Assembly: GCA_045106715.1 (NCBI GenBank)
Contig: JBGCFC010000009.1
Coordinates: 1-64,000, forward strand
Length of the DNA: 64,000 bases
Reading direction: 5' to 3'
DNA from: Sandaracinaceae bacterium
GTDB taxonomy: Bacteria > Myxococcota_A > Polyangia > Polyangiales > Sandaracinaceae
The notes under the pieces are model-generated. The model did no database searches. It had not been told where the DNA came from and was given only the letters and a program-made list of their open reading frames with translations. Positions 11,604-31,986 of the stretch are shown here, one piece after another (the stretch's first letter is position 1; each line of letters opens with the position of its first letter). The position numbers and the translations under genes were made by a program.

Positions 11604-13461
11604 TCAGAAGCTGGAGATGCGGATCAAGAATACGTTGTTGCGCTCGTCGCCTGCGTACGTCGTCCCGCTGGGCAGCGTGATGCCGTCGCGCCCGAATGTG
11701 CCGACGACCACGAGCGCACCGAAGGGGTCGGCCTGCACGGCAACCACGTCCTCTCGGTCTTCCCCGGAGAGTCCCTGGGCGAACAGGGTGAAGTTCTCGT
11801 CTGCGTCGACCTGCGCGAAGTACGCGTCGAGGCCGCCGACCGAGGGGCCGAGTGTGCCTCGAGGGGGCAACGGGAGCTGACCCCCGAAGCCGCCCGCCTC
11901 GAAGAGCGTGTCGCGTCCGTCGAAGGTCAGGCCCTGGGGGCTCACGAAGTCGGGACCCGCGTGCACTCGTGTGTAGCGGTGGGTCCCGTCGGCCGAGAAC
12001 ACCGCGACAAACGCGTCGTTCGTCCCTTCGGCGGTCCAGGTGGTCTCGGTCCACGGCGGCGCGAAGGTGCCGTTGAACGTCCCCGCGACGGCGAGCGTGC
12101 CGTCCCCGGCGACCGCCGCGGTGGCTGCGAATACGGGCACGGCCAGCGTCGGCACGAGGGCGGCCGACAGCACGACAACATGGCGGCCGTCGACGTGCCG
12201 GCGAGCTCGAGCGGGGTGCCGGTGTTGCCTTGCACGACGATGTGCTGGCCCTTGGCGTTGAGGCCATCGAGCTCGTAGCGACCGTCGGCGTCTTCGAGGC
12301 GCCGCCGTGCGACCTCTGTCGTTCCATCGAACAGCAAGACGTCGAGCCGGTCAGGGGAGCTGCCCTCGCGCGACGAGACGGCCACGACGAGCCCGGCCTC
12401 GATGGCCGCGAGCCCCGCAACGCTCTGGATAGTGGCTCCCTCGACCGTGGGGGAGAGGGTAGCCACCTCGCTGCCGTCGGTCGTCGAGTGAAGCGTGATG
12501 CCGGACGCGGTGGCGACCGCGAGCTGCGGCTCTCCTGGCACGGCGACGAGCGCCACCCCGCGAGCCGGCAAGCGGTGCACGAAGCGGAAGCGGCCATCGG
12601 CTTCGAGCGCCAAGAGATAGGTGCCGAACGTCTCGGTGGACCCGTCCCCGTCGAGGTCGGCCGGCGTGTCCACGATGAGGCCGAGGTAGACCGCGCCGTC
12701 GGCGTCGATCGTCATCCCGAACGCCGGAGCGTCGTCGGCCGCCGGGAACGTCCGCTCCCACGGCACACTTCGGCAGCGGCTGCTCATGCACATCCCGACG
12801 GGGCAGAAGGCGCCCGCCTCGTCGACGTCACCGTCGCAGTCGTCGTCGCGCGTATTGCAGCTCTCGGTCGCGTCGGGGTTCAGGTCGGCCCGCGTGTCGT
12901 CGCAGTCGCGGCCGCTGTTGATCGAGCCGTCGGGGCGGGGGTTGCTGCATCGCGCGTCGATGAAACCATCGTTGTCGTTGTCGGCTTCGCCGTCGCCCGC
13001 CAGCGTCGTCGGGTCGCAGTCCTCGTCGAGCGTGGCCCCTTCGCCTGCGCAGATCTCCGCCCCCTCGCTGTAACGGCGTGGGTCTGTGTCGTCGCAGTCC
13101 GCTCCGCCGCACGAAATCCGGTTGTGTTCCCACCGGCCGAGTCGCCGCCGACCGCCAGGCGCGCGGGGTCCCGATCCAGGTCGGGGTCTTCGCAGTCGTC
13201 TTCCACACAAGCGTCCATCTCCTCGTCGCAGAAGAGCGTCGCGTCGCACGGTGCGGGGGTGGCCATGCCGCCGTCCGAGTCGGCGGGTGCATCGGTGGAG
13301 CAGACTTCGCTTCCGTTGCAGAAGACGCCATCGTCGCACTCGTCGTCATTGGTGCAGCGCACCCGCGTCGAGGCGTCGATGCCGCCGTCTTCCTGCGCGG
13401 TGTCGTCGCACCCGGCGGCGAGCAAGACGGAGAGGCACGGCGGAATGAAGAGGCGCTTCAT
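11604..13461 (-). pseudogene. MopE-repeat lipoprotein disrupted by two single-nt frameshifts
   Basis: The N-terminus MKRLFIPPCLSVLLAAGCDD...CDDGVFCNGSEVC is paralogous to the 8050..11541 N-terminus. The coding signal moves from frame 13461 to frame 13339 at about 13110-13160, and then to frame 12173 at about 12175-12215. The C-terminal part ends ...FLIRISSF. Confidence 0.5.
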
Positions 13462-13485: not shown

Positions 13486-15153
13486 TCACGTCCCGCGCCG
13501 CCACGCATGCCGTGCGGCCCACGCGTCGAGGTGGGCGAGGTACAGACTGGTTGCGCGCCAAGCGGCGGCGAGCGCTTCGAGTTCGGGCCCGCGGCGCGGC
13601 GCGGCGTGAGCTCCCCGGCGGACCATGTGTCGAACCAGTTCGTCGGCGCCCTTGAACCCCGCTCGTCGCAGCCGGGCCGCGTCTTCTTCGACACGCGCGC
13701 TTCGGGACGCCGCGACCGCGCGCCAGCCGAGCCGCACCACACCGATCAGGACGCGTTCGAGCGGTCGCCACGCGCGGGTGTCGAGGGGGGGCGGCACGGC
13801 CGCGTCAGGCACGTTCGTCTGGGCGCCCCAGGCGGACTCGATGTCCCGGTTTCCCCCTCGCCCGAGCACCCACACGGGCTGGCCTCGAATCCCGAACGCG
13901 AGCGGGATCAGCGTGGGGGTCTCCCCGGCCCGAGCCACCATCCGCACGGTCCTTCCGGTCGCCCGCCCGAGGTTGGCCAGGTCGGCCCGCTCGCGTTCGG
14001 TGGCGTGTGCGCGTGCCCTCAGAGGCAGCGCCGTGCCTTCCACCACCAGATGGCCGTGCCCGTCGCTCGTCCCCTCGATGAAGAGCAGCCCGGCGCCTTC
14101 CGACCGCAAGTGAGGGGGGCGTGTCCGTGACGTGAACACGCGCTCGAGCTGGGCATCGAGCGGGGTTGAGAAGAGCGCGGACACCGGCGCGGTCCACCAG
14201 TCGACGGGCGCCCCGAGCACCGTCTTGACCTTGCTGCCCGTGCCCAGTCGTCCGTCCAGCGACCGGGTGCCGCCTTCGAGCAGAACCTGATGCCGGGATG
14301 CTTGTCCGTGGGTGAGACTCGCGCCCTTCAGCAGCGATGTCTTCTCGGAGAGCCCCGCGCTGTTCTCCGGGACGACGTGGCTGAACGAGGACAGCTCTCC
14401 TGCCCGGTCGACGACAAACGTCGTCACGCCGCTGTAGCCGACGGTGGTGGAGAAGGGCACGGTGACGATCCCGAACAGCGCCACGGGGTCGAGCGGATGG
14501 TACGGGCGTCGGCCCCAGCCCCGCTCCTCGAGGCTGGCCCGCTCGGCGTTGGACAACGTGTCGGCGAGCCCCAGCGCGTCGCGGAGATCGCGCATGACCG
14601 GCAGGAGGTCGTTCTCCGCTCCACGTCCCCGGATGTGCCCCACCATGCGGAGCAGAGACGCCGACAAGCGGTGAAGGCCAGCGTCGCGGCATTGGTGCAC
14701 CGCACCGAGCACGGCTCCCTCCACCACGATCCCCGCCCCTTCGAGCCCGGTGCCCAAAAGGGCCTGAAGTGCCGTCAAGCTCGCCCTGGCGGCCGCGCGC
14801 TCCTTCTCGCTGACCTCGGTCTGCTCCAGCGGCGTGCTCGACGGAGTCTCCGGCTCGTCGCTCTCCACGGGCCCGTCGGTCGCCAGCGGCAGCGCCCGCG
14901 CCACGGCGAGGCGATGCAGGCAGCGCGGTGCGAGCAGGCAGCCGCAACGGAGGTCGTCGTCGGTGTGCACGCCTTCCGCGCGCACCGTCACGGTCACCTC
15001 CTCGGAAGCTTGCACCTCGACCCACTCGCCGTTCGCGCGCCACGCCCAGCCGTCCGCCAGCGTAGGGTTCTTGTCGAGCTTGCGTTGGAGGCGCGAAGGA
15101 ACGCCCGCGACCGTGTCGGCCACCAGCCCAGCGCGAATGTGCGGCCGCGTCAT
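13486..15153 (-). CDS. SWIM zinc-finger protein (YehQ-like)
   Basis: ATG at 15151-15153 (MTRPHIRAGL), preceded by gagaagg. The SWIM motif CGCLLAPRCLH fits CxCx(n)CxH. The start overlaps the upstream stop (ATGA). Confidence 0.8.
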   Translation of the reverse strand: MTRPHIRAGLVADTVAGVPSRLQRKLDKNPTLADGWAWRANGEWVEVQASEEVTVTVRAEGVHTDDDLRCGCLLAPRCLHRLAVARALPLATDGPVESDEPETPSSTPLEQTEVSEKERAAARASLTALQALLGTGLEGAGIVVEGAVLGAVHQCRDAGLHRLSASLLRMVGHIRGRGAENDLLPVMRDLRDALGLADTLSNAERASLEERGWGRRPYHPLDPVALFGIVTVPFSTTVGYSGVTTFVVDRAGELSSFSHVVPENSAGLSEKTSLLKGASLTHGQASRHQVLLEGGTRSLDGRLGTGSKVKTVLGAPVDWWTAPVSALFSTPLDAQLERVFTSRTRPPHLRSEGAGLLFIEGTSDGHGHLVVEGTALPLRARAHATERERADLANLGRATGRTVRMVARAGETPTLIPLAFGIRGQPVWVLGRGGNRDIESAWGAQTNVPDAAVPPPLDTRAWRPLERVLIGVVRLGWRAVAASRSARVEEDAARLRRAGFKGADELVRHMVRRGAHAAPRRGPELEALAAAWRATSLYLAHLDAWAARHAWRRGT

Positions 15154-18100
15154 GGCTGCACCTTCTCTTTGATCCACCGGGCGACCTGGTCGGGGCTCAG
15201 CGCGGCGATCGGCATGCCCGCGGCGACGAGCCGCTCCGCCGTCGCGACGTCGTAGCGGGCTCCGCCCTCGCCATCGAGGCTGGCCAGTCCGAGGAGTTGC
15301 GCGCCCGACGCCCTGAGCGCGCGAACGGCGCCAAAGAGCACCGAGGGTGGACCGCCGTCCGCGAAGTCCGACACGCACAAGACGAGCGAGCGCGGAGGGC
15401 GGCGGAGCGTCGCGGCCACGTGGGCGAGCGCGTCTCCGATGAGGGTCCCGCCGCCGATCTGCACGGACAGCAGGAGCTCCAGCGGGTCTTGCACGACGTC
15501 GGTCATCTCGATGACTTCGGTGCTGAACGCGAAGAGCCGAAGGTCGAGCCACGGCACACCCGCGAGCACCGCCGCCATCACGGCCGTGTGCACGGTGCTG
15601 GGCTCCATCGAGCCGCTGACGTCCAGCAGGACGGTCACCTCCCACGGCGGCGTGCGATGCGCGAGCGCCTCGAAGGCGATGCGATCGGGGGCCAGCCGCA
15701 CCGTGCCTTCGGCGTCTCGGTAGGCCGTGCGAAGGTTTCGTTCGACCGTGCGCTTGAGGTGCAGCCGCCCGTTGTCCCGTCGGCTCCATCCCGCGGTGCG
15801 GGTGCCGCGGAGAGCGGGCTGAATCTCGCTGGCGAGCGCCCTGGTCAGTTGCTCCACCACGCGCTTGATGAGCGGCCGCAGCCGAGCCAGAGCTCCGTCG
15901 CCGAGGCTGCCTCGCATCTCCAGGATCTGCGCCAGCAGGTCGGCCGACGGGCGCACCGCTTCCGGGTCGAGGTGGGCGAGCAGGTCCGGTCGCTCTCGGG
16001 CGCGATCGACGATGACCTCCTGACGCACCTCGCGGCCGACCAGCCGGTCGAGCTCCTCCGTCCAGCGGCGGGCGTGCACGGCGACGCCTTCTCTTCCCGC
16101 GGTGAGCGGAGGGTTCTCCATCGCGAGCGCCACGGTCTGGCCAAACGTCGACGAGGGTGCGCCGCGCCCGAGCACGAGCTGCACACGGTCCTCCACGGAG
16201 AGCCGCGCTCCGTCCGGCGTGCGCCAGCCACGGGTCCCGGCTTCACGGGTGGCGGTGTCCGGGGCGGGGTCATCTGCATGGGCGTCATTTGCATCGGGGT
16301 CGTCTGCGAAGGGGTCGAAGCGAGGCCCCATCGCGGCGCGCGCAGCGTGGTAGGCGGCGCGATCGAGCTCGACGTGATGCGCGCGTACGAGTGGGTCGAT
16401 CTGGTCGACGCGCGCCATCACGAGGCCCGCTTCTTCGATGTGCTCGAGCAGCCGGTCCCGGTCCGTGCCCCCCAGCGCACGGAACCCGGCGCGCAGGGCG
16501 GGGAGCCGAGCGAGGAAGCGGTCGTCGGAGATCGCGGCGATGCGCCCGACGAGGGCGTCGAAGAGTGCTGGTGACGCGTGCACGAGCCCTGGGGAGCCCA
16601 CGAACAGGCCGGTGAGCGCGAGCGACAGGGCGCGCCGGGTGTCCGGCTCAGCGGCGCCGTCGACGTGCGACGCGAGCCACCGGGCGGCCGGCTCCGGCGG
16701 AGTCAGCTCGGTGAGGAGCTGGGCGGCGAACGCGGCGCCCCGCATCACGGGGCCCGCACGCTCGACGAACTTCGCCAGCAGCGCGGCCAGCCGCGCGCTT
16801 CCGGGATGCGCCAGCACGAGCCGGACGAGGGCGACCGCGTCTTCTGGCTCCTCGCTGCCGATGAGGCCTTCGAGGCGGGTCTCGGCGATTCGGGCGACGC
16901 GCAGCCGTTCCTCCTCCATCGAGTGCACCGCGGCCGCCTGTGTCGCTGGGTCGAAGCCGGGGATCAAACCGGCGGCCAGGCGCGCGAGAAAGGCGCTGTA
17001 GTCGAGCAGCCCGAGCAGCGTGGCGTCGTCGAGGGCGTCGCGGCGAAGCGCGTCGAACCACACGGCCGCAGCGGGGAGGTCGGCCTCGAACGCGGCTTTC
17101 AACGTGGACAGCGCGTCAAGGAAGGACAGTTCTCCGTCTTCTGCCGCGCGGGCGCGCCGTAAGCTCAGCGTCCCGCTGGCCGCCTGCTTCACCGTGACTC
17201 CGGTCGTCCCCGCGACGGCGAGCGTGGCGTCGGTGTTTGGCGTCCACGCGACGCGCCATCGAACCGCGAGCGCTTCGATGCCGCCCTGCGCGACCGACTC
17301 CACGCGGCTGCCGTACGCGATGCCTGAGAGCGCCGCCCGCGTGAGCAGCAAATGCCGCGCGCGATCGCGGCGGTTGCGCCGCACTTCCAGTCGCCGCTCC
17401 TCCGGATCGCCCGGCACGTCCGGCAACCCCAGGCTGGCTAGGTCGGCCCGGAACGCCGCCGTGAGACCGGTGACGGGCGCTCCCTTGGGGAGCTTTCCGC
17501 GCGCATGGCCGATGAGCACGTCCCGGACCGCCAGGTCGAACCCGCGTCCGTCGCCCCCGAGCACGGCGCGGAGCCCCTCACGGAACTCCAGGCGTCCGGG
17601 TTCGGCGAGCCCTCGGAGCGCAGCGAGCCCCCGACTCAAGCGAACGACCTCCACCGCGGCGTCGGTCGATGCCGCGTGGCCGGATCGGCGGAGCGCGCGC
17701 GCCGTCGACACCGCCATGCGGTCGAGGTGTGCATCCACGGTTCCGGTTCCCTCGGCGTACCGCGAGGCGTGCCAGCCGGGGTCGTCGATCCCCGCCGGAT
17801 ACCCGGACCGCGCGTCGAGCAGCCGGTTGGCGTAGGGCACGAGACTGAGCGCGCCCTCGCGCACCGGAGGGACGTCGTCCGCGAGCGTTGCGTCTACCTG
17901 CGGGGCATCCACGAGGGCCGGTGCGTGTGCCGCCCCGACGACCGCCACGCTCCCTTCGCGGCGGCCTTCGAGCTGAGCCCGCATGTGCGCTTCGCGAACG
18001 CGGGTCGCGCGGCTCCCAGGCTGGCCTCCACGGACCGCGTGACCGACGCGCAGCCCCGCGCGGCGAAGGTCTTCCGGGATGCCCTCGGCGCGGGCCTCGA

Positions 18101-18494
18101 CCAGGTCATCCCATCTGTCCAGCAGGGCCACCCCCGCGTCGGACGTCGACGGCTCCGCCTCGTCGCGAGCGACCAGCACGTCGAAGAACACCACGGGGAT
18201 GCCACGCGCTTGGGCCCAGGCGATGGCGACCCGCTCGGGCGAGAACGCCGCGAGCGGCAGCATCGTGACGGAGCTCTCGGTGGCGTGCGCGAGGGCGATC
18301 GGAGGCACGGTGTCGGGGTGCCCGACCCACTCGGCCAAGGGCTGGAAGCAGCGGGGCAGCTCCACGAACAACGTCGACGGCGCCGCCGCCTCGAGCAGGT
18401 CGGGCATGGCGAGCGCCAGCGCGACGGAGTGGTGCCGGACGCCGATCAGAAACGGCGCGCGGGACAGGCAGAGCGCTTCGACCTCTTCGCTCAC
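15150..18494 (-). CDS. Large DUF5682-like protein with C-terminal VWA domain (YehM/YehP-like fusion)
   Basis: The GTG start overlaps the MoxR stop (GTGA). The C-terminus has a von Willebrand A domain with MIDAS motif TVLLDVSGSM...T...D...VLCVSDFADGG. The N-terminal ~750 aa form a helical region of unknown function. The DUF5682 label is from memory of the family, not a search. Confidence 0.75.
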   Translation of the reverse strand: MSEEVEALCLSRAPFLIGVRHHSVALALAMPDLLEAAAPSTLFVELPRCFQPLAEWVGHPDTVPPIALAHATESSVTMLPLAAFSPERVAIAWAQARGIPVVFFDVLVARDEAEPSTSDAGVALLDRWDDLVEARAEGIPEDLRRAGLRVGHAVRGGQPGSRATRVREAHMRAQLEGRREGSVAVVGAAHAPALVDAPQVDATLADDVPPVREGALSLVPYANRLLDARSGYPAGIDDPGWHASRYAEGTGTVDAHLDRMAVSTARALRRSGHAASTDAAVEVVRLSRGLAALRGLAEPGRLEFREGLRAVLGGDGRGFDLAVRDVLIGHARGKLPKGAPVTGLTAAFRADLASLGLPDVPGDPEERRLEVRRNRRDRARHLLLTRAALSGIAYGSRVESVAQGGIEALAVRWRVAWTPNTDATLAVAGTTGVTVKQAASGTLSLRRARAAEDGELSFLDALSTLKAAFEADLPAAAVWFDALRRDALDDATLLGLLDYSAFLARLAAGLIPGFDPATQAAAVHSMEEERLRVARIAETRLEGLIGSEEPEDAVALVRLVLAHPGSARLAALLAKFVERAGPVMRGAAFAAQLLTELTPPEPAARWLASHVDGAAEPDTRRALSLALTGLFVGSPGLVHASPALFDALVGRIAAISDDRFLARLPALRAGFRALGGTDRDRLLEHIEEAGLVMARVDQIDPLVRAHHVELDRAAYHAARAAMGPRFDPFADDPDANDAHADDPAPDTATREAGTRGWRTPDGARLSVEDRVQLVLGRGAPSSTFGQTVALAMENPPLTAGREGVAVHARRWTEELDRLVGREVRQEVIVDRARERPDLLAHLDPEAVRPSADLLAQILEMRGSLGDGALARLRPLIKRVVEQLTRALASEIQPALRGTRTAGWSRRDNGRLHLKRTVERNLRTAYRDAEGTVRLAPDRIAFEALAHRTPPWEVTVLLDVSGSMEPSTVHTAVMAAVLAGVPWLDLRLFAFSTEVIEMTDVVQDPLELLLSVQIGGGTLIGDALAHVAATLRRPPRSLVLCVSDFADGGPPSVLFGAVRALRASGAQLLGLASLDGEGGARYDVATAERLVAAGMPIAALSPDQVARWIKEKVQP

Positions 18495-19636
18495 GAGAGC
18501 AGGCGGCCGCGGTGGTCGTGCAAGGCGCGCCAGAGGGACTCGGGTTGGTCCTCGGCGCGCCGCGAGACGACGCCGTCCCAGTACGCGAGCAACCGGCCGC
18601 GGTCGTCTTCCACGTCTTTGACGACCACGCCGAGCAGCATTCCCACGACCGTCTCCGCGGCCGACGCCTCGAAGAAGCGCGTCGTTCGAAGCACACCCTC
18701 AGCGACCTGCACGGCCTCGGCCGCGCTCATCACCGCGGACGGTTTTTCAACCGCCCAGCCCTCCTCCGTGGTGCCGTACCGGAGGTCGCGAAACAGGGTG
18801 ACCAGTGCCTTCAGCACCGCTTCGTCTGCGGACGCCAGCTTGCCGTCGGAGCCGATGAGGCCGGGCGTGGCCAGCGTGCGTCGGCGCACCAGATCGAGTT
18901 CGTCCTCGAACTCCGCGATGGGCGCGACGATCTCGAAGTTGAATCGCCGCTTGAGCGCCGCGCTCATCTCGGAGACCCCCCGGTCGCGCGTGTTGGCGGT
19001 GGCGATGACGTTGAAGCCGGGGCGCGCGTACACCGTCTCTCCCAGCTCGGCGATGGTCAGCCTGCGTTCGCTGAGCAACGAGACGAGGCCGTCCTGCACC
19101 TCCGACAGGCAGCGGGTGACCTCCTCGATCCGCGCGACCGAACCGTCCTGCATGCAGCGGAGGATCGGCGAAGGAACGAGGGCGTCACGGCTGGGGCCCT
19201 GGCCGATCAGCATCGCGTAGTTCCAGCCGTAGCGAAGCTGCGCCTCGTCGGTGCCCGCGCTGCCCTGCACGGTGCGCTCGCTGCCTCCGCTGATCGCCGC
19301 CGCGAGCAGCTCGGACAGCATCGACTTCGCGGTGCCGGGCTCGCCGACGAGAAGCAGCGATCGGGGACCCGCGAGGGTCACGACGCAGCGCTCCACGAGC
19401 CGCCGGTCGCCGATGAACTTGGCTTCGATCGCACGAGGCGCGGGCGCCCCCTTCTTCTTCTTGCCGACCTTCGCTCCATCCGAGCCACAGATGAAGGTGA
19501 CCACGGCTTCGGGGGTCGTCTTCCACCCTTCCGGGCGCCCTCCGGGCAGTGAGCACAGCAGCGCCAGCTCGTCGGCGTACCGCACCTCGGCAGGCGGGAA
19601 CTGGATGGTTTCGTCGCTCTGGGTGTCGTCGCTCAT
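18491..19636 (-). CDS. MoxR-like AAA+ ATPase (YehL-like)
   Basis: ATG at 19634-19636 (MSDDTQ...). Walker A is LVGEPGTAKS and the sensor region is NVIATANTRD. The length and order match MoxR/AAA_5 proteins. The start overlaps the upstream stop (ATGA). Confidence 0.85.
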   Translation of the reverse strand: MSDDTQSDETIQFPPAEVRYADELALLCSLPGGRPEGWKTTPEAVVTFICGSDGAKVGKKKKGAPAPRAIEAKFIGDRRLVERCVVTLAGPRSLLLVGEPGTAKSMLSELLAAAISGGSERTVQGSAGTDEAQLRYGWNYAMLIGQGPSRDALVPSPILRCMQDGSVARIEEVTRCLSEVQDGLVSLLSERRLTIAELGETVYARPGFNVIATANTRDRGVSEMSAALKRRFNFEIVAPIAEFEDELDLVRRRTLATPGLIGSDGKLASADEAVLKALVTLFRDLRYGTTEEGWAVEKPSAVMSAAEAVQVAEGVLRTTRFFEASAAETVVGMLLGVVVKDVEDDRGRLLAYWDGVVSRRAEDQPESLWRALHDHRGRLLS

Positions 19637-22600: not shown

Positions 22601-24339
22601 CCCACGAAAACCAGAAGGTCCTCGCCCACGTAGAGCGCGATGTGCGCGTACTCGTGCGATTTCGGCACGGTGTGTTCGAGCACTTTCGAGCCGTCCCGGT
22701 CGAGCACGACGACGTCGTGGCCATGCGCCATCGTGAGGTAGGGCGGCGTGAGGAACAGGTTCGGGACATCTCGGTCCGACGTGGCCATCGCTTCGAACTC
22801 GGGAAAGCAGACTTCCTCGACACATCCGAACCGCAGCTGGCTGGCGAACGACTCCGCCACGTCGATGCGGGAGAGGGCCTCGGCGAGCGCGGGGATGCGA
22901 GAGGCGTACGCTCCCGGGAACGCGTCCAGGAGGTTGAGCGCACTCTGGGTGTCGACCAAGCCGCCGGTACCGACGGGCGCCAGGCGTTCCGAGACGGCCT
23001 CGCTGAGCATCTCGAGGAAGCGGGGCAGCTCCGGCTCGGGAAGGCTCTGATACGCGCGCGGCCGCAGCCTGCCGGCGTGACCCACGAACCTGGCGCGAGC
23101 GATCTCGTCGCCGGCGATGAGCGGGATGTCCTCGCTCGGCCAGCGCTGCCCTCGGTAGTAGTTGTCGAGGTTCGTGAAGCGCACGAACGCATGGGGGATC
23201 CCCAGGCGGAGCGACGTCTCCACCGTCGTGAACGACAGCGGCTTGTCCTCGGCCCCGAGCGGATGTCCGTCATCGATCAGCCGCGGCGCCGCCTTCTCGA
23301 TCAGCCCGAAGGCGAGCTCCGTGCGGCAGGCGCTCAGCATTCCGGTCATCCAGGCGGCCGCGGTTCGGCTGCTCTGTCCGGGCGCGTTGGCATCGACGAT
23401 CGCGTCGAGCAGACCCCATGCGTCCAGCTGCTCCAGCCAGGGCTCGGCCTTGATCTCCATCGGCCAGAGATCGAGCAGGGCGCTCGCGACCTCGGAGTCG
23501 GCGCTGGCCGCGGCCCCGAGGGCCTTCTTGGCCTTGGTGAAGAAGCCCTTGGCGGCGCGCCTGAGCGCGCTCGCGGACGCGATCTGAGAGATGAACTCGA
23601 GCTCCGCTTCGGCCGGCTTGATCTTGGCGGCCTTGGCCAGCTTGCCGATGTCCTTGAGCTGCGTCGGGGACGGGGGCAGGCCACCCATGGTGCGGCGGAC
23701 ACACACGCGGAGATACGCGTCCAAGCCGTCTTTCCCGCGGGCCGTGAGCTCGTCGGCGTAGTTGGTGAGGCTCTTGACGGCGAGCGCTCCGGCGAGCGCG
23801 AAGTCGACGAAGCTCTGCTCACGCAGGTCCTCGTCGGCCTCCAGCCCGTACTGACGTTCGGCCGCCCGCGCCTTCTCGAAGTACTGCTGCGCGTAGCTGA
23901 GGTTGTCGTGTTCGATGAACGCGCGCGCGGCCTCCTCGTAATACGACGGCAAGAAGTGCGGCACCGAGCCGGCGAGCTGCGCGCCGATCGCGTCGAGCCC
24001 CTCCTTGGCGGCGCCCGGCTTGGACTTCATGCGCCGAATCGACTTCTTCATCTCCTCGAGCACGTCGAGCGCGAAGCGCGCGTTCTTCTTGTCGTTCACG
24101 AGCGCCCACGCCGGGAAGCCGAGCGGCTGCCGTGAGACGCGCCCGACATCGTCCCGTCCGGCAGCGGCGAAGCCGAGCAGCTCCATCTCGAGGTCGACGG
24201 CCTCGTCGATCGTGCCCGGGCCGAGCCGCACCATCGGCGTGGACAACGCGGGGTGCGAGTACGCGCGCGCGACGAGCACGTCGAGGTCTTTGGGCTTCGC
24301 GGAGAGCGGCAGTACGCTGCCTGCGGCGAGCGCACTCAT
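19633..24339 (-). CDS. Giant (1568 aa) protein of unknown function, paralog A of a tandem pair
   Basis: ATG at 24337-24339 (MSALAAGSVLPLSAKPKDLDVL...) with GAGGAG 9 nt upstream. The stop overlaps the MoxR start, and the start overlaps the WGR gene stop. The ORF is continuous and GC3-rich. No recognisable catalytic motif was seen by eye. Confidence 0.7.
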   Translation of the reverse strand: MSALAAGSVLPLSAKPKDLDVLVARAYSHPALSTPMVRLGPGTIDEAVDLEMELLGFAAAGRDDVGRVSRQPLGFPAWALVNDKKNARFALDVLEEMKKSIRRMKSKPGAAKEGLDAIGAQLAGSVPHFLPSYYEEAARAFIEHDNLSYAQQYFEKARAAERQYGLEADEDLREQSFVDFALAGALAVKSLTNYADELTARGKDGLDAYLRVCVRRTMGGLPPSPTQLKDIGKLAKAAKIKPAEAELEFISQIASASALRRAAKGFFTKAKKALGAAASADSEVASALLDLWPMEIKAEPWLEQLDAWGLLDAIVDANAPGQSSRTAAAWMTGMLSACRTELAFGLIEKAAPRLIDDGHPLGAEDKPLSFTTVETSLRLGIPHAFVRFTNLDNYYRGQRWPSEDIPLIAGDEIARARFVGHAGRLRPRAYQSLPEPELPRFLEMLSEAVSERLAPVGTGGLVDTQSALNLLDAFPGAYASRIPALAEALSRIDVAESFASQLRFGCVEEVCFPEFEAMATSDRDVPNLFLTPPYLTMAHGHDVVVLDRDGSKVLEHTVPKSHEYAHIALYVGEDLLVFVGGRWDVSGYYWASAPGAVHPLTPKAIYGTSARAAVRLDSGDVLAGALIKAGSTTVRLSHLEGRPIVHDGAPHLLSDSGWLRYDPKSGESAPTEAPSEVIWHWRLELEPREGAPVRVENDVYAFGYQESGLIHWDASGELGAATQRLEGTLRLPARSDWCAITYGYRRRELHELNGRSRTGRSDFLSVSKRPFPPAIALPYCVPSDPDASKRLATIEAAALEGILSAARGDEAHKVSTSSYRAFEPHPSVASAVDAALPTTYDPLRTALIGAAHLAGQVSRLHAKVAQAYSGGEAAPEDNAEEAAVPSLPKRTLCDPALTDALGDWATPMGADYRRRIPGPTLVSELAELRLRFDRPLSDEHTEEYAWGHHCWQPALGHGTYVLYRMALAPKKAEEARTQLAAFAHKLVEHGFEDPAHYRMAFRRENTKEACKGPYNPTFSRLGDNRVLAWQLGFKEAAYFTFVEYAPKGEFVIVDDPTDNLYGPCWLTPERIDEVAAHVREAGPLPIKKALPFLREATGLTDAEATMWASAEIEADPFKLVKKGRKAAKTSFEHDPFVFSPGHMLHMMELVSAVWMAGDYKELWDPKVLAERLAAVYLRHHPKVPALTPGDEAVLASCAPDSPQQSIDEPSWSARLLAEDVVGDSLGELLPFLHLDREFHFDKDGLRVAGMSGSSVVTGSRGFFSSLKWDYVPVTLARVCVPPVQALYEAQGHALLVRSLPRFWKLLRDRLKGPALYQKFDHLREELAETVAAALPAGGPSTFRGDKPERLLGDDRRVFIGRRRMTLYVRYDALLEGEPLVAEQVAAKRVLRNLEFITGEQGDRLIALAEQVAGTDGCAGDPRVSAPKVVKNVAKLLSVSPDAAAYYLMLACLPSPTDKRVIAIGGWKAKDLDALGAELVAKELIIEGKRAGAGRTRFIPGLWVKDKHRVSAVKWTRDLFGWGDDTDRHAPLDSVFEGAVPPYSPDALFEAAWARIEAGEGPKFEEPGR

Positions 24340-25535
24340 GACGCGTTCTCCTCTTCTTCGATCTTGCGAGCGGCGTAGATGAGCGACGCCATGCGCACGC
24401 CCTCCGAGTAGGTCACCGGCGGGACGTCGTTCAGGCGCAGGGTCTTGCCGTTGAGTTCGAAGCTCAGGTCTTCGGTGACCGCCTCGCCCCACGGGTCTTC
24501 GGCGCCCACCCAGAAGTTCGCCTGATGCAGCGCGCCGTCCTCGTGCACGCTCGTGGTCGCGTAGCCGCCGCTCATGCGGCACCCGATCGCACGGACGCGC
24601 GCGGTTGCGTGGCGCGCCTCCTCGAACTGGCCGTTCTCGTAGTCGGTGACCGACGTCACGTCGTCGGCGATCCGGTCGGGCTTCGCGAAGGTCTCGCGCA
24701 TCAGCTGGCCCAGGCCCTGCGCGATGCCGAGCTCCATCGCGAGCTCCCGGAAGTCGGCCAGCTCCGCGAGCAGGATCGGATGCGGAATGCGCACGGTCTC
24801 CGCGCCGAGCCAAACGCTCTCCCCGTCGAGGTTGACGAGCCCGAGGCCGCGCTCCGGGTCGACGTCCTTCAAGAAGCCGATGCGTTCGTCATCGTCGAGC
24901 GAGGCAGGGGCGATCACGGTGTTCTCGAGCAGCGCCCGCCACGTGGCGTCGGGCCAGACCTTTTCGAGCAGCGCCGAGGGCACCGGGAGGGAGCGCAGCA
25001 TCCAGCGCTCGACCGTCTCGAGGCACTCCTCGGCGTGCGCCTTCATCATCTTGGCGACGTCGAGCATCATCTCGCCCTGAGGCGAGGTCTTCATCTTCTT
25101 GGAGACCGACTTCAGCTCTTTGCCCTTCGCGTTCCGGGCGACGAGCTTGCCGTCCTTGATCGCGAGGGAACCTCCGGCGTCGCACGGGACCCACCCGTCG
25201 GTCTCGGGCGGCGGCTCCGGAGCCTTCTTCTTGGTCGGTGCCTTCTTCTTGGCGGTCGCCTTCTTCGCGGGTGCCTTCTCTGCCGGAGTCGCTGCCGTTT
25301 CGGTCGCTGTGTCGCTGGCATCCTCGGACGTCTGCTCGACGTAGCCCTTCTTGGTCTTCTGCCCGATGAGCTTGTTGGCCTCCTTGAGCGCCGCGGCTTC
25401 GTCCCCGAAGGACTTCTCCTTCGTCTGGCCGTTCGTGCCGATGCGCCCGTAGCGAATCGTCAGGTTCGACCCACTCTGTTCGACTTCCCAGAACTTCGAC
25501 GATTTGGCGTCTTCGTACGTCAGGTGCTTGCGCAT
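24336..25535 (-). CDS. WGR-domain + DUF4132 (MolR-like) protein
   Basis: ATG at 25533-25535 with a GGAAGGA SD. The N-terminal WGR signature is KFWEVEQSGSNLTIRYGRIGTNGQTKEKSF...KKGY. A Lys/Ala/Pro-rich linker follows. The C-terminal ~220 aa match my recollection of DUF4132, the domain at the C-terminus of E. coli MolR/YehI. Confidence 0.8.
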   Translation of the reverse strand: MRKHLTYEDAKSSKFWEVEQSGSNLTIRYGRIGTNGQTKEKSFGDEAAALKEANKLIGQKTKKGYVEQTSEDASDTATETAATPAEKAPAKKATAKKKAPTKKKAPEPPPETDGWVPCDAGGSLAIKDGKLVARNAKGKELKSVSKKMKTSPQGEMMLDVAKMMKAHAEECLETVERWMLRSLPVPSALLEKVWPDATWRALLENTVIAPASLDDDERIGFLKDVDPERGLGLVNLDGESVWLGAETVRIPHPILLAELADFRELAMELGIAQGLGQLMRETFAKPDRIADDVTSVTDYENGQFEEARHATARVRAIGCRMSGGYATTSVHEDGALHQANFWVGAEDPWGEAVTEDLSFELNGKTLRLNDVPPVTYSEGVRMASLIYAARKIEEEENAS

Positions 25536-25607
25536 GCGACTTCGTCCTTCCGTGGCGGTCTGCACCGCCAGATCTCTTCATTCATCGACGGGTGCCACCC
25601 GCCCGGC

Positions 25608-28600
25608 TCAGCTCCCGGGCTCGTCGAGGCCAGGGCCGTCGCCCGCTTCGATGCGCGCCCACGCCGCCTCGTACAGCGCGTCCGGGGACATCGGCGGGAA
25701 GGCACCCCGAAAGACCGCGTCGTCCGGGGCGTGACGATCGGTTTCGGTGCCCCACCCGAACAGCTCCCGCGTCCACCTCACCGCGCTCACGCGGTGCTTG
25801 TCTTTGACCCAGAGCCCCGGAACGAACCGCGTCCGGCCGGCGCCGGCGCGCTTGCCTTCCACGATGTGCGCTCCCGCGCCGAGTTCGGCTCCCAACGCGT
25901 CGAGCGTGTTGGCGTCCCAGCCCGCGAGTGCCCCCACGTGTTTGTCCGTCGGCGACGGCAAGCACGCGAGCATCAAGAAGTAGGCGGCCGCATCGGAGCT
26001 GACCGAAAGCCGTTCCGCGACGCCCTCGACGACCTTCGGAGCGCTCACCCTGGGGTCTCCCGCGCAGCGCTCGGAGCCGGCGACCTGCTCGGCCAACGCG
26101 ATCATCCGCGCGAGGGTCGGGCCCATCAGGAAGGTCAGGTCCTGCCGCAGCCGCCGCACATCTTGGTGGGCGTCCATGGGTGTGTCGCCCTCCACGATGG
26201 CGTCGTACCGCAGCCACAGCCGCGCCTGTCCGGTCTTCAGGTACACGCACCGGTCGTCGCCCAAGAGCGTCTTGGGCTTCTTGCCTTGGAACGACGACGG
26301 TCCGCCCTTCGGCAGCGCGGCTCGCACCGTGTCCAACACGTCCCGGTGAAGCTCGATCTCCTGGTAGAGGCCAGGTCCCTGAAGGCGCTCTTGCAGCAAG
26401 CGGAACACGCGCGGGAGCGAGCGCACCAGGAGCGCATGCCCGTCGCACGCGTACAGACCGCGCACGAACGGGACCACGATGCGCTCGAGCGACTCGGGGA
26501 TGTAGTCCCACTTCAGATTCGAGTGAAACCCGCGGCCCGTGGTTCGTCCGCCGGTCACGCCGCGGACGTGGTAGCCGTCCTTGTCGAAGTGGTGCTCGCG
26601 GTCCTGATGAAGGAAGGGCAGAAGGGCCTCGACCCCGTCGGTGTCGTTAGCGAGCAGGCGCGCCGCCCAGGACGGCTCGTCGATGGTGAGGTCGGCTTCG
26701 TCACGGATGTGTTTGGCCAAGACGGCTTCGTCGCCCGCCGTGAGGGTCGGCAGCTGCGGTCGGTGCCGAAGGAAGACGCCCGCGAGCCGTTCGGCGAGGA
26801 CCTTCGGATCCCAGAGCTCCTTGTAGTCCCCGGAGGTGAAGACCGAAGAGCCGAGGTCGAGGGTGTGAAGCATGTGTCCCGGAGACGAGACGAAGGGGTC
26901 ATGTTCGAAGGACGTGCGGCCGACCCAGCGCAGGCTCGCCTTCTTGACCAGCTTGAAGGGGTCGGAATGGAACTCGGCGAGCGCCCACATGGTGGCCTCG
27001 CTCTCGGTCATGCCCGTGGCCTCACACAGCAGCGGCACGGCCTTCCGGATCGGGAGCGGACCGGCCGCCTCGACATGGGCGACGACCTCCTCGATGCGGT
27101 CCGCCGTGAGCCAGCATGGGCCGTAGAGGTTGTCGTCTGGGTCGGCGATGACTTCGAAGACGCCCTTCGGGGCGTACTCGAGGAACGTGAACATCGCGTC
27201 TTCTTCGTAGCCGAGTTGCCACGCGAAGACGCGGTTGTCTCCACGCGCCGCGAGCGTTGGGTGATAGGGGCTCTTGCAGATGGAGGCCGTGTTCTCCTTC
27301 CGGAATGCGAGCCGGTAGTGGTCCCGGTCTTCGAACCCGTGCTGAAGAAGCAGCCGCGCGAACGAAGCGAGCTGCTCCCGCGCAGCCGAGGCCTTCTTCG
27401 GCGCCAGCGCCATTCGGTAGAGCACGTACGCGCCGTGCCCGAGTCCGGGCTGCCAGCAGTGGTGGCCCCAGATGTACTCGTCGTGCCCTTTGGGGACCGG
27501 GCGATCGAATCGCAGCCGAAGCTCCCCTAGCTCGGAGGCGAGTGTCGGGCCCTTGGTTCGGTCGCGGTAGCCGGCATCCAGCGGGTAGGCGAAGTCGCCC
27601 AACGCGTCCGTCAGCGTAGGGTTGCCGACGTCGCGCTTGGGGAGGGCGTCAGCGCTCTTCTTCTTCGAGGCGGTCTTCCTCGGCAAGGTGTCTCCCGAAG
27701 AAGAAACTGCGCTCGTGGACTCGATGAGATCCCCGACATCCTCGCGCACTTCCTCGTAGGCGGCGGCGACGTGCCCGGCGTAGTGCGCGATCCCGGCGAG
27801 CGCGGCGCGGAGCGGCGCGTATGAGGTCGTCACCAGTGCGTCGAGCGCCTCGAGCAGGCCTCGGTGCGGCTTGAACTTCGTCCAGCTGGAGGCGGTGACC
27901 TCGAGCGCCTTGGGCTTCTGCGCCACCTCGAGCAGGCTGGCCAGCTCGTCGGCCTGGATCGTCGAGAGCTGTGCTGACGCCGCTGCGTCGGAGGGCCGGT
28001 ACATGGGAAGGGCCATCTTGCCGGCGAAGCGTCGCTCCGCAGCCCCGAGAAGGTCATCCCCGTCGGAGTATTGGACGCCTCGCACGTCACGAAGCTCCTC
28101 CGCCTCGTAGGACTCCTCGAAGAGGCAGGGCGCCTCGCGATGGGGGAGCTGGATGAGCGCGTCGGACGTACCGCTCTGGTCCACCATCGGTCCCGGGACC
28201 GCGCCCTCTCCGTCCTCTGCGCCGCCTTCGCTCATCGCGTAGGCGAACACCCCGTTGCCCGCGCGCACGGGCGCCCCTTCGCGGGGATCGAGCTCGACGT
28301 GGAACGCCCAGCGCTTCGTCTGCTCGGCTTCGTCTTCCACAAACGCGCCCGTCGAGGCGTCGTACCGGACCCACCCCTCGTCGCGGGGCACCAGCACGGT
28401 GCCGTCGTGTACCTGAGGACGCCCGGCGAGGTCCTCGCTGCGAAGCGTCGTCGATCCCGCGCGGATGAGGCCGGCGGCGATGACGTCCCCGCCGGGGAGC
28501 CGAACCGCGTTGTCCGAGTTCCAGACCCACCCGCTGATGGGGTGCACGTCTTTGGGCGCGCTGGCCCAGTAGTAGCCGCGGTAGTTGTAGCCGTACTCGT

Positions 28601-30344
28601 CGCTCAGGCAGACCAGCAGGTCCTCGCCCACGTACATCGCGCGGCACGCGGTCCCGCCGCGCACCTTGTGTTCGAGCACGAGCGCACCATCGCGGTCGAA
28701 CACGCGGACCTGCTTCTTCGTCCACAGCGTCGTGAACGGCCACGTGACGCAGAACCCCGGCTCCTGGTCTTTGACCGCCATGGCCTCGAACTCGGGAAAG
28801 CAGATCTCTTCGATGCACCCGAACCGGAGCTGCGCGGCGAACGCTTCGGGCACATCGATGCGGCGGAAGGCGTCGCGGAGGGCGGGGAGCGTCTTCCAGT
28901 AGCGCGCCGGGAAACCGCCGAGAAGCTCGAGCGCTTCTTTGGTGTGATAGAGCCCGCTCTGCCCGATCGAGGCGAGCGTCTTGGCCATCGCCTCGTCGAG
29001 CATGGCGTTGAACGCAGGCAGGTCGACGTCGGGGAGGTCCGCGTAGTCGGAGCCCGAAAGGCGCCCTGCGTCCGCGAGAAAGCGCGCGCGTGCGTTGGGG
29101 TCTTCGGCGATGCGCGGGAGGTCGACGGAAGGCCATCGCGGGCTGTCTGCGTACCGGTAGCTCTCGAGGTTCTCGAAGCTCTCGAAGACGTGCGGGATGC
29201 CCAGTCGGAGGCAGGTTTCGACGGTGTCGAGGGACAGGCGCTCTTCCTTGCCCCCGAGCGGGATGGCCTCGGCGATGAGTCGGTCCGCCGCGCGCTCGAG
29301 GACGCCGAGGGCGCGCTCGCCCCAACAGTGCTCCAGCATGGACGTCATCCACGCCGCGGTCGTTCGCTGGCTCTGCCCGGGCGCATCGGCGTCGGCCAGC
29401 GCGTCGAGAAGCCCCCAGTCGTCCAGCAGCGCCAGCCAGCTCTGGCTGTCGACGCCGCCCGGCCACAGATCCAAGAACGCAGACGCGACGGCGATGTCTT
29501 GCTTCGCCGCGGCGGCCAACGACTTCTTCGCCTTCGTGTAGAAGCCCTTTGAGGCGCGCCGGAGCGCGCTCGCGGACGCGATCTGCGTGATGAAGTCGCG
29601 CTCGGCGTCGGCCGGGGTGAGCCCGGCGGCCTTGGCCAGCTTGGCGATGTCCTTGAGCTGGGTGGCGGACGGGGGGAGGCCGCCGAGGGTGCGGCGGACG
29701 GAAACACGAAGGTAGGCGTCCAGGCCGTCCTTGCCGCGCGCCGACAGCTCGTCCGCGTAGTTCGTGAGGCTCTTGACCGCGAGGGCGCCGGCGAGCGCGA
29801 AGTCGACGAAGCTCTTCTCGCGCAGCTCCTCGTCAACCTCGAGTCCGTACTGGCGCTCGGCGGCCCGCGCCCTCTCGAAGTACTGCTGCGCGTAGCTGAT
29901 GTTGTCGTGCGCGATGAACGCGCGCGCCGCCTCTTCGTAGAAGGAGGGCAAGAAGTGCGGGACCGAGCCGGCGAGCTTCGCGCCGATGGCGTCGAGCCCT
30001 TCCTTGGCCGTGCCCGGCTTGGACTTCATGCGCCGAATCGACGTCTTCATCTCTTCGAGCACGTCGAGCGCGAACCGCGCGTTCTTCTTGTCGTGCACGA
30101 GCGCCCAGGCCGGGAAGCCGAGCGGTTGGCGAGGCACGCGGCCCACCTCATCGCGTGCGCTCGGCGTGAAGCCGAGCAGGTCCATCTCGAGGTCGACCGC
30201 CTCGTCGATCGCGCCGGGGCCGAGCCGCACCATCGGGGACGGCAGGGCGGGGTGCGCGTAGGCACGCGCGACCAGAACGTCGAGCTCGTCGGCGGGGGAC
30301 GAGAGCGGCAGGATGCTGCCGGCAACGTGGGCTGGGCGGCTCAC
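25608..30344 (-). CDS. Giant (1578 aa) protein, paralog B of the tandem pair
   Basis: A GTG start at 30342-30344 (MSRPAHVAGSILPLSSPADELDVL...) aligns with the paralog A N-terminus. A GTG at 30401 is an alternative. The N-terminal 300 aa are about 85 % identical to paralog A. Conserved blocks recur along the whole length (HGFEDPAHYRMAFRRENT / HGFEDRDHYRLAFRKENT; GDPRVSAPKVV... in both). Confidence 0.65.
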   Translation of the reverse strand: MSRPAHVAGSILPLSSPADELDVLVARAYAHPALPSPMVRLGPGAIDEAVDLEMDLLGFTPSARDEVGRVPRQPLGFPAWALVHDKKNARFALDVLEEMKTSIRRMKSKPGTAKEGLDAIGAKLAGSVPHFLPSFYEEAARAFIAHDNISYAQQYFERARAAERQYGLEVDEELREKSFVDFALAGALAVKSLTNYADELSARGKDGLDAYLRVSVRRTLGGLPPSATQLKDIAKLAKAAGLTPADAERDFITQIASASALRRASKGFYTKAKKSLAAAAKQDIAVASAFLDLWPGGVDSQSWLALLDDWGLLDALADADAPGQSQRTTAAWMTSMLEHCWGERALGVLERAADRLIAEAIPLGGKEERLSLDTVETCLRLGIPHVFESFENLESYRYADSPRWPSVDLPRIAEDPNARARFLADAGRLSGSDYADLPDVDLPAFNAMLDEAMAKTLASIGQSGLYHTKEALELLGGFPARYWKTLPALRDAFRRIDVPEAFAAQLRFGCIEEICFPEFEAMAVKDQEPGFCVTWPFTTLWTKKQVRVFDRDGALVLEHKVRGGTACRAMYVGEDLLVCLSDEYGYNYRGYYWASAPKDVHPISGWVWNSDNAVRLPGGDVIAAGLIRAGSTTLRSEDLAGRPQVHDGTVLVPRDEGWVRYDASTGAFVEDEAEQTKRWAFHVELDPREGAPVRAGNGVFAYAMSEGGAEDGEGAVPGPMVDQSGTSDALIQLPHREAPCLFEESYEAEELRDVRGVQYSDGDDLLGAAERRFAGKMALPMYRPSDAAASAQLSTIQADELASLLEVAQKPKALEVTASSWTKFKPHRGLLEALDALVTTSYAPLRAALAGIAHYAGHVAAAYEEVREDVGDLIESTSAVSSSGDTLPRKTASKKKSADALPKRDVGNPTLTDALGDFAYPLDAGYRDRTKGPTLASELGELRLRFDRPVPKGHDEYIWGHHCWQPGLGHGAYVLYRMALAPKKASAAREQLASFARLLLQHGFEDRDHYRLAFRKENTASICKSPYHPTLAARGDNRVFAWQLGYEEDAMFTFLEYAPKGVFEVIADPDDNLYGPCWLTADRIEEVVAHVEAAGPLPIRKAVPLLCEATGMTESEATMWALAEFHSDPFKLVKKASLRWVGRTSFEHDPFVSSPGHMLHTLDLGSSVFTSGDYKELWDPKVLAERLAGVFLRHRPQLPTLTAGDEAVLAKHIRDEADLTIDEPSWAARLLANDTDGVEALLPFLHQDREHHFDKDGYHVRGVTGGRTTGRGFHSNLKWDYIPESLERIVVPFVRGLYACDGHALLVRSLPRVFRLLQERLQGPGLYQEIELHRDVLDTVRAALPKGGPSSFQGKKPKTLLGDDRCVYLKTGQARLWLRYDAIVEGDTPMDAHQDVRRLRQDLTFLMGPTLARMIALAEQVAGSERCAGDPRVSAPKVVEGVAERLSVSSDAAAYFLMLACLPSPTDKHVGALAGWDANTLDALGAELGAGAHIVEGKRAGAGRTRFVPGLWVKDKHRVSAVRWTRELFGWGTETDRHAPDDAVFRGAFPPMSPDALYEAAWARIEAGDGPGLDEPGS

Positions 30345-30584
30345 GCTGCACCCCCACGCGCCTGGACTCGTAGCTGTTGCATGGGCACTCCTACCACCCA
30401 CAGTCTTGCGGATGAAGGTGCGAATCCGGCGTGCCGTTCCTCATGCGTTCGCCGTTCGCGAACCTCGTGCCATGTCGAAAGTGAGGGCAGGCGGACCGCT
30501 TCGGGGTGCAGTCGCCTGCGCCGGACTGTCGCGCCGAGCAAACCTTGCGTGAGCGCGTGCGCCCGTCGGGTACCCTCGACGGCG
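30345..30584. promoter_or_regulatory. Divergent intergenic region, probably carrying promoter(s) for the minus-strand MoxR/VWA/SWIM operon and the plus-strand SUKH gene
   Basis: This is a 240-bp non-coding gap between divergent starts. No -35/-10 match could be assigned confidently. Confidence 0.3.
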
Positions 30585-31985: not shown

Positions 31986-31986
31986 C

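Follow-up and report, generated by a model that had tools for sequence, protein, structure and literature searches.

We report here that six genes found in a 64-kb stretch of DNA of about 70% GC from a metagenome-assembled genome of the Sandaracinaceae (Myxococcota) belong to a five-gene operon family in which a giant protein is a core component; the whole of this stretch is called the window below. The family is widespread and undescribed and falls within the known YehL/MoxR-VWA kind. In the window the six open reading frames occupy positions 13486-30344, all of them on the minus strand, and only two features distinguish them from their relatives, namely a duplication of the giant and a rare fusion with a WGR domain. 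Based on promoter motifs found in relatives and on the predicted domains, the operon may encode a DNA-damage-induced, DNA-tethered remodelling machine. The genes are as follows.

25608-30344, minus strand: giant B, 1578 amino acids (aa), GTG start; extra upstream paralog of the putative core scaffold protein of the family
24336-25535, minus strand: putative WGR+DUF4132 adaptor, 399 aa; WGR at aa 4-70, Lys/Ala/Pro-rich linker, DUF4132 at aa 138-316
19633-24339, minus strand: giant A, 1568 aa
18491-19636, minus strand: MoxR AAA+ ATPase of the predicted YehL subfamily, 381 aa; Walker A GEPGTAKS at aa 98
15150-18494, minus strand: DUF5682+VWA protein, 1114 aa; YehM-like at aa ~1-858, CoxE-type VWA at aa 891-1107, metal-ion-dependent adhesion site (MIDAS) DVSGS at 958
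13486-15153, minus strand: putative SWIM-motif zinc-finger protein, 555 aa; CxCx5CxH at aa 70-80 (nucleotides 14914-14946); position of YehQ

Gene order and distribution of the operon family

An earlier note on this DNA had proposed six co-directional genes between these limits, with overlapping start and stop codons at the last four junctions, and the open reading frame calls confirmed both points. Indeed, an ATGA or GTGA overlap of 4 nucleotides (nt) joins WGR/giant A, giant A/MoxR, MoxR/VWA and VWA/SWIM, and a gap of 72 nt separates giant B from the WGR gene. The six gene calls are considered real since each protein has full-length homologues elsewhere. Giant A is identical to NCBI protein P0001 and giant B equals P0002, with the same length; the two sequences are the NCBI entries AB8I08_02995 and AB8I08_03005. 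The GC content of the operon is uniform with that of its surroundings.

The family has the order DUF4132, giant, AAA_5 MoxR, DUF5682/VWA_CoxE and, finally, a SWIM-like protein of ~560-650 aa. We observed this order, on one strand, in eight contigs from Streptomyces, Catellatospora, a Streptomyces linear plasmid and several metagenomes. A scan of contigs with the single sequence of giant A gave no matches, whereas an alignment-based scan, with one genome per species, did find giants, in at least 585 species genomes. Eighty genome loci were fetched and searched by tblastn for the five components. About 70 of the 80 agree in order and strand, and most of the others are cut by contig ends, such as locus L081, which ends 2 kb past the giant with no MoxR gene in that stretch. 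The DUF4132 gene precedes the giant in all related loci, and the SWIM-motif gene is the last of the operon in all complete ones. Conservation of the neighbourhood across Myxococcota and Actinobacteria, which the earlier note had put forward as a check, is borne out in hundreds of genomes.

The clear exception is Actinospica durhamensis (L077, 242-5967), where a DUF4132 and giant pair is followed, over 10 kb, by no gene for MoxR, DUF5682-VWA or SWIM. The pair of adaptor and giant may thus be a module separable from the motor trio, a situation comparable to that of the lone extra giant B of the window, which has no DUF4132 gene of its own. A second giant is found in none of the ~88 other loci examined, and within 10 kb in none of the 80 fetched genome loci. 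The view that the giants are additional genes embedded in a yeh-like operon must be abandoned, a single giant being a core syntenic component in hundreds of genomes.

The giant-bearing genomes are mostly those of Actinomycetota (including Streptomyces, Dactylosporangium, Catellatospora, Micromonospora, Saccharothrix and Umezawaea) and Myxococcota, with a few from Planctomycetota and other metagenome-assembled genomes. No giant match was found in phages; among mobile replicons, matches were observed only on megaplasmids and chromids of the Streptomyces type. Comparison between loci shows the strongest conservation for MoxR (58-83% identity) and the weakest for the giant (31-55%) and the SWIM protein (32-56%), with one relatedness pattern common to all five components. 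The flanking genes differ from locus to locus. In one Catellatospora locus (L005, 1901-4746), an unrelated AAA_5 + DUF2201 (VWA-like) pair, accompanied by ankyrin, LRR and patatin genes, lies upstream within 8 kb of the operon and may be another MoxR-type system.

Domains and folds of the encoded proteins

The WGR, DUF4132, MoxR (AAA_5), VWA and DUF5682 domains named in the earlier note are Pfam matches far above threshold. The same note could not assign any domain to the giants, and the hidden Markov model (HMM) libraries agree with it, since no match was obtained in Pfam, NCBIfam or PADLOC even at E<=10. Likewise, a giant profile retrieved no related chain among PDB sequences. Giants A and B are paralogs, 60% identical over their full length; the identity reaches 80-90% in the first 250 residues and falls to 28-44% across residues 651-900. 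A word-indexed search yielded 292 homologues of giant A, nearly all of 1550-1700 aa, and the family amounts to 525 clusters at 50% identity in an exhaustive search of 1.84 billion representatives. Its conservation is high at residues 1-670 and 1400-1568 and low between them.

AlphaFold2 models of giant A were obtained for residues 1-880 (predicted local distance difference test, pLDDT, 87.4; predicted TM-score, pTM, 0.77) and for residues 881-1568 (pLDDT 86.1, pTM 0.88). They suggest the following domains.

N-terminus: small alpha/beta domain
~77-520: TPR-like alpha-solenoid
~527-750: beta-propeller-like domain
middle: variable helical and alpha/beta region
~1420-1515: conserved C-terminal winged-helix region

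With Foldseek, the giant model matched VPS15-type chains made of a solenoid and WD40 repeats (E=1e-4), and the beta-rich segment ~527-750 matched many beta-propellers (probability ~0.98-1.0, ~250 aligned columns). Foldseek revealed no catalytic fold in the AlphaFold models, and the modelled folds appear to be of the scaffold and sensor type only. The AlphaFold/Foldseek comparison for which the earlier note had called gave a TPR-like solenoid, a beta-propeller and a winged helix, and no known enzyme family; its idea that the giants are the best candidates for a novel effector or sensor thus finds no support as far as an effector is concerned. We also considered the giant as a divergent MolR/YehI protein, and this candidate was dropped because neither profile-sequence nor profile-profile (hhalign) comparison with E. 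coli YehI gave any signal.

The adaptor combines WGR (Pfam 2e-20, 73 bits for a cut-off of 22) and DUF4132 (Pfam 4e-21, 76 bits for a cut-off of 27). Its WGR domain is 52% identical to E. coli YehF by blastp and matches PDB entry 2ra8 (1.5e-15). The module is, as the note had stated, a compact protein of 399 aa, and a small DUF4132 protein is in fact the norm in the giant-containing clade. WGR is absent from all 80 fetched genome loci, and one metagenomic locus, L012, has WGR+DUF4132. The Myxococcota DUF4132 proteins open not with WGR but with Lys/Ala/Pro-rich, histone-H1-like tails of 40-100 aa (L014 8874-, L027 4226-, L055 8820-, L067 5154-, L092 3178- and others). In the window, WGR is followed by a short linker of tail-like composition (aa ~85-125, window ~25160-25280). 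Both WGR and the Lys/Ala tails are features that would be expected of DNA-associated proteins, by analogy with other families. In addition, DUF4132 is fused to the N-terminus of the giant in two proteins (P0081 and P0141), and a 4-nt overlap joins the DUF4132 gene and the giant in the window and in the contig loci with called genes; the fusions and the conserved overlap argue for a physical complex.

The ATPase (AAA_5, Pfam 5e-38) is 46.6% identical to E. coli YehL over 378/381 aa (blastp, E=2e-98), and its non-canonical P-loop GEPGTAKS is invariant in nine orthologues including that of E. coli. The neighbourhood is also of the YehL type, with DUF5682+VWA_CoxE and SWIM-motif genes after the ATPase at 4-nt overlaps. 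By its sequence, we assign the ATPase to the YehL subfamily, one of the seven MoxR subfamilies in the classification of Snider and Houry and an uncharacterised one (PMC3893208). Its best relatives among PDB sequences are midasin AAA modules (2e-18), followed by NorQ and by McrB, the latter weakly (8e-4).

For the 1114-aa protein, Pfam gives DUF5682 (7e-110) and VWA_CoxE (6e-45), and blastp aligns the N-terminal part to YehM (3e-17) and the C-terminal part to YehP (5e-45). The protein thus appears as a YehM+YehP fusion, as the note had proposed, and such a fusion is the norm in the giant-containing clade. The MIDAS motif DVSGS lies at aa 958, its DxSxS form is kept in eight orthologues, and the VWA domain stops 7 residues before the C-terminus. 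A search of PDB sequences gave nothing useful for this protein. In the DUF5682 part, the N-terminal ~200 residues (a region of ~250 aa, window 17745-18494, minus strand) contain invariant RHHS, E45, SPE, D105, WD, RE and GAxHA. Families of the Tiki clan match this region weakly, each in one family member (ChaN PF04187, E=0.025; TraB PF01963, E=0.054), and hhalign aligns it weakly to E. coli YbaP (P=0.05), with REAxMR...VGAxHA against QRNLAWR...VGALHL; Pfam gave no support to a TraB/Tiki assignment when queried with the window protein by itself. The N-terminus may be a Tiki/TraB-like hydrolase domain, which we retain as a lead only, and it would possibly be the sole candidate catalytic module of the operon besides the ATPase. 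Of two assemblies of Catellatospora bangladeshensis (L004 and L005, ~15890-19558), one has an intact DUF5682-VWA gene (1222 aa) and the other has it in fragments, which reflects either an assembly error or a pseudogene.

In the last protein, C70, C72, C78 and H80 (RCGCLLAPRCLH) are invariant in five orthologues. The SWIM zinc finger of the earlier note stands as far as this CxCx5CxH motif is concerned, but the HMM does not detect the window protein. As the Pfam SWIM model (PF04434) gives no match to it even at E<=10, the call rests on the motif. Orthologues have sub-threshold matches to this model (E=0.035 and 0.12), hhalign aligns the motif to the SWIM domain of YehQ (E=0.014), and some homologues bear the name SWIM in NCBI or UniRef. 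A comparison of the SWIM profile with PDB sequences gave nothing useful.

The match to the E. coli molR/yehI-yehKLMPQ set that the note had seen holds, by the comparisons with YehL, YehM, YehP and YehF, by the tandem DUF4132 genes and by the SWIM protein YehQ. In the K-12 region, yehH and yehI are tandem DUF4132 genes, and DUF4132 is found in YehI, DUF5682 in YehM and SWIM in YehQ. The locus molR(yehF/yehH)-yehI-yehK-yehLMPQ thus shares with the window a YehL-type MoxR (47% identical, with GEPGTAKS), DUF5682, a CoxE-type VWA with DxSxS (YehP), a final protein that bears a SWIM motif in its N-terminal part, and WGR and DUF4132 encoded upstream; its function is uncharacterised. It differs in that YehM and YehP are one polypeptide in the window, where DUF4132 is small (~290-400 aa) and YehK is missing, and in that a giant of ~1600 aa replaces the long DUF4132 proteins, with no homology to YehI/MolR detectable by hhalign.

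Promoter motifs and regulons

Upstream of the DUF4132 gene in actinomycete loci, we noted an element of the form TTGTCAGTG-N8-TAnnnT. It fits the published motif of PafBC, determined in vivo as tGTCgg(N10)tA(N3)T, the 3' part of which is the -10 element (PMC8635444). We searched both strands of all 80 loci (3.59 Mb) with the expression TGTC[AG]G-N10-TA-N3-T and obtained 56 matches, 42 of them within 200 nt upstream of the DUF4132 start and on the strand of the operon, mostly at -58 to -62 and up to 140 nt away (examples from actinomycete loci L022-L091: L022 8987, L060 9058, L034 9076). With a stricter 8-mer form, 21 of the 22 matches were at the operon-upstream position. The motif is present in 25/28 loci of Streptomyces, 5/5 of Catellatospora, 4/4 of Umezawaea, 3/3 of Saccharothrix, 2/2 of Actinosynnema, 2/2 of Catenulispora and 1/1 of Cryptosporangium. 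Near-variants (TGTCGC, TGTCAC or TGTCGT-N10-TAnnnT) occupy the corresponding position in Dactylosporangium (10/10) and Micromonospora (3/4). Nearly all actinomycete operons would therefore bear a predicted PafBC promoter, and this predicts that they are members of the PafBC DNA-damage regulon, a link to damage of which the earlier note had not spoken. Promoters of this PafBC/RecA-NDp kind function in Streptomyces, with recA and SCO6735 under their control, and are inducible by UV (PMC5087735). No Cheo-box (GAAC-N4-GTTC) was found upstream of actinomycete operons.

Two other regulons bear on the same genes. E. coli molR is listed among the genes with a known SOS box and regulated by LexA (PMC6590174). 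The SOS-box-like sequence CTGGATAAAATTACAG that precedes yehF, the part of molR encoding WGR, by 25 nt (E. coli K-12, L001, 6450-6465) is consistent with this listing. In Deinococcus, the genes of a DUF4132 protein (DRA0166) and of a WGR protein (DR2173) are strongly derepressed upon depletion of DdrO, and the same study mentions E. coli MolR as a member of the LexA regulon (PMC8533742).

In the window, the putative promoter region of the operon is the following.

30345-30587, minus strand: intergenic, between giant B and a divergent SUKH-1 gene; palindrome GGTTCGCGAACGGCGAACG at 30446-30464

No match to the sigma-70 consensus was found upstream of giant B, and a scan for promoter and terminator consensus was uninformative in DNA of 70% GC. 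Several myxobacterial upstream regions share CGGGAGTG and a promoter-like pair TTGCCG...AACATC. Neither these nor the palindrome of the window matched a known regulator motif.

As for the neighbouring genes, the divergent SMI1/KNR4 (SUKH-1) gene at 30588-31148 (plus strand) lies directly upstream of giant B, with a Pfam match (1.8e-05) barely above threshold; members of the SUKH-1 family are often met as immunity proteins. An esterase (PF00756, 4e-58) and a zinc alcohol dehydrogenase, side by side at 31155-33096 (minus strand), adjoin the operon and resemble a formaldehyde-detoxification pair. Downstream of the operon, 8050-13339 (minus strand) encodes two large MopE-repeat proteins rich in Cys, of which one (1163 aa) also has RCC1/beta-propeller repeats; further along the window, 36189-40283 (plus strand) encodes a DUF3857+transglutaminase protein of 1364 aa. 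Such large secreted-type proteins are typical of myxobacteria.

Possible functions of the operon

We favour, tentatively and at a little under an even chance, the hypothesis that the operon encodes a DNA-damage-induced, DNA-tethered MoxR-VWA remodelling machine. It is favoured because LexA, PafBC and DdrO, in three phyla, are linked to DUF4132/WGR genes and because four modules of a type that would contact nucleic acids, judging from other families, are present: WGR, the Lys/Ala tail, the SWIM motif and the winged helix. The regulatory motifs are those of relatives, from which we infer induction by DNA damage in this genome. The DUF4132 adaptor would bind DNA or lesions through WGR, and in other Myxococcota through its histone-H1-like Lys/Ala tail. 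Adaptor and giant would form a stoichiometric complex, in which the TPR-like solenoid, the beta-propeller and the winged helix would serve as a platform for recognition of clients or DNA. The MIDAS site of the VWA domain could then capture a peptide of the client or of the giant, and the MoxR hexamer would spend ATP to remodel or extract the captured protein, as MoxR-vWA pairs generally capture a peptide and remodel a substrate (PMC7159879, section 8). The SWIM protein would supply a zinc-finger contact with DNA or protein, and the DUF5682 N-terminal domain would possibly act on the client as a Tiki/TraB-like hydrolase. Since the divergence of the two giants is greatest in the propeller-to-linker region, they would provide two specificities for one shared engine.

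Such a mechanism would parallel that of midasin (Rea1). Among proteins of solved structure, midasin is the one nearest in sequence to the ATPase domain (2e-18), and it likewise associates an AAA_5 motor with a MIDAS/VWA domain that grips clients, the clients of Rea1 being beta-propeller assembly factors. Unlike the proteins of the window, where motor and MIDAS are on separate chains, it is a single polypeptide of 4,900 aa with six AAA modules and acts in ribosome biogenesis.

Several observations weigh against a damage-induced machine. No PafBC motif is present upstream of giant B or of the WGR gene in the window, nor in the Myxococcota loci, as would however be expected of an actinobacterial regulator. 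The Myxococcus LexA box (CTRHAMRYBYGTTCAGS, <=3 mismatches) was not found upstream in the myxobacterial loci or the window, and the Cheo-box was not found upstream in the window either. The actinomycete promoter motifs are predictions, and a study of mitomycin-treated S. venezuelae reported that the M. smegmatis PafBC motif seemed not to be conserved there; in the RNA-seq tables for mitomycin in this species, the operon was not identifiable by product name or gene length. As no homology of the giant to YehI/MolR could be detected, what is known of SOS control in E. coli carries over only through the common set of DUF4132, WGR, YehL, YehM, YehP and YehQ. DNA binding by WGR, SWIM, winged helix and Lys/Ala tail is transposed from other families, and the matches behind a Tiki/TraB-like assignment are weak (E=0.025-0.054, hhalign P=0.05). 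Finally, induction by damage would also fit a defence role that phage or prophage activity sets off.

In this latter hypothesis, which we consider unlikely but still a serious candidate, the operon would carry out anti-phage or anti-invader surveillance in biological conflicts: the giant would be the sensor, MoxR-VWA the threshold, and a so far unrecognised effector perhaps DUF5682 or the C-terminal domain of the SWIM protein. The earlier note had gone in this direction by matching the operon to the MoxR-vWA ternary systems of Aravind and colleagues, and this membership was not upheld, only the general grammar and the GxxxTAKS P-loop being shared. The defining third components of these systems are VMAP, iSTAND, FtsH, or a vWA with a C-terminal beta-propeller of ~4 blades, and SWIM, WGR, YehL and DUF4132 are not mentioned with them (Kaur, Burroughs, Iyer and Aravind; Kaur et al. 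2020). In the operon proteins of the window, VMAP, iSTAND and FtsH gave no matches and no propeller is present C-terminal to the vWA. The match of the ATPase to bpMoxR (PF20030) is below threshold (23.5 bits for a gathering value of 27) and covers only 50 residues around the P-loop. The nearest comparison is with subsystem 4, the MoxR-vWA-beta-propeller systems, whose MoxR has a P-loop of the GxxxTAKS type and whose vWA protein begins with a long N-terminal region; TPR and beta-propeller come together in their large third component, and they lack a conventional effector. However, the vWA of the window is C-terminal with no propeller after it, and SWIM, DUF4132, WGR and DUF5682 are not part of ternary systems. 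Their third component has a membrane segment and a variable N-terminus, whereas the giant of the window has neither and its N-terminus is its most conserved part. Their taxa (Bacteroidota, Planctomycetota, Proteobacteria) also differ from those of the giant-containing family.

A conflict role does draw on the common grammar of MoxR, vWA and a large TPR/beta-propeller component, and on the P-loop noted for beta-propeller and FtsH ternary systems and invariant here. The giant and the SWIM protein evolve fastest, the middle region of the giant is variable, and the duplicated sensor-like paralogs diverge most in the propeller/linker region. A distribution centred on multicellular or social lineages (Actinomycetota, Myxococcota), flanking genes that vary at every locus and the divergent SUKH-1 gene next to the operon go the same way. 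PafBC-related WYL regulators are also reported to control defence systems, but the PafBC, LexA and DdrO regulons are mainly repair regulons. Moreover, the operon lies outside the systems catalogued by Kaur et al., its vWA lacking a C-terminal propeller, and no recognisable effector domain was found. PADLOC-DB v2 gave only a weak WGR_XIII match (1.6e-05) for the adaptor and nothing for the other five proteins. No copies were found in phages, the mobile ones being restricted to Streptomyces-type megaplasmids and chromids, and the operon keeps an extremely uniform architecture where a shuffling of effectors would be typical of conflict systems.

This uniform architecture, with five or six genes translationally coupled, would also suit a chaperone for the assembly or maturation of a housekeeping complex, comparable to RavA-ViaA, CoxD-CoxE, NorQ-NorD and CbbQ-CbbO, with the giant as client or assembly scaffold and no link to DNA. 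All characterised MoxR-VWA pairs are indeed maturation factors, the VWA domain here is of the CoxE type and NorQ is among the PDB sequence matches. As in CoxD-CoxE, RavA-ViaA and NorQ-NorD, the MoxR ATPase adjoins, and is translationally coupled to, a VWA/MIDAS protein; unlike them, the operon has no enzyme client nearby, contains three to four extra conserved partners and belongs to another MoxR subfamily. We hold such a housekeeping role to be improbable because a client enzyme is never linked: no metalloenzyme or respiratory client gene accompanies the operon in ~88 loci, the flanks of which are unrelated. WGR, the SWIM motif, the winged helix and the H1-like tails rather point to nucleic acid, damage-regulon promoters are not expected of a housekeeping chaperone, and the phyletic distribution is patchy.

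SWIM domains also occur in transposases. That the operon is something that a mobile element left behind or carries along, its SWIM recalling MuDR-type transposases and its AAA_5 McrB-like restriction modules, nevertheless seems very improbable, since the weak PDB match of the ATPase to McrB (8e-4) and the occurrence on linear megaplasmids are set against the lack of any transposase, integrase, nuclease or terminal repeats associated with the operon, the lack of phage matches, a GC content uniform with the surroundings and a component phylogeny that appears vertical and congruent within genera.

Returning to the damage-induced machine, a broader proposal would extend it to all DUF4132/YehL-MoxR/DUF5682-VWA/SWIM systems, those of E. 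coli (molR-yehLMPQ) and the operons with a giant in Actinomycetota and Myxococcota included. These would together be an unrecognised, phylum-spanning damage-response machine, recruited independently into the LexA, PafBC and DdrO regulons, whose midasin-like AAA_5 motor and MIDAS extract or remodel proteins on damaged DNA; the giants would be its specificity factors for lesions or clients, duplicated here. We regard this extension as doubtful.

The duplication of the giant is in itself a modest curiosity; the value of the present work lies in the definition of the family and in a testable damage hypothesis that bears on molR, a gene reportedly listed since 2000 as an SOS gene of unknown function. 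The YehL subfamily is likewise said to have been without an assigned role since 2006. In the literature searched, DUF5682 was not met and DUF4132 appears in few papers. In hundreds of genomes of actinomycetes and myxobacteria, the yeh-type system exists in a much larger form that is strictly conserved. If this form served immunity, it would amount to a new defence family, one that is not in PADLOC; if the damage hypothesis is true, it would be a new ATP-driven machine in bacterial DNA-damage responses and a mechanistic parallel to eukaryotic midasin.

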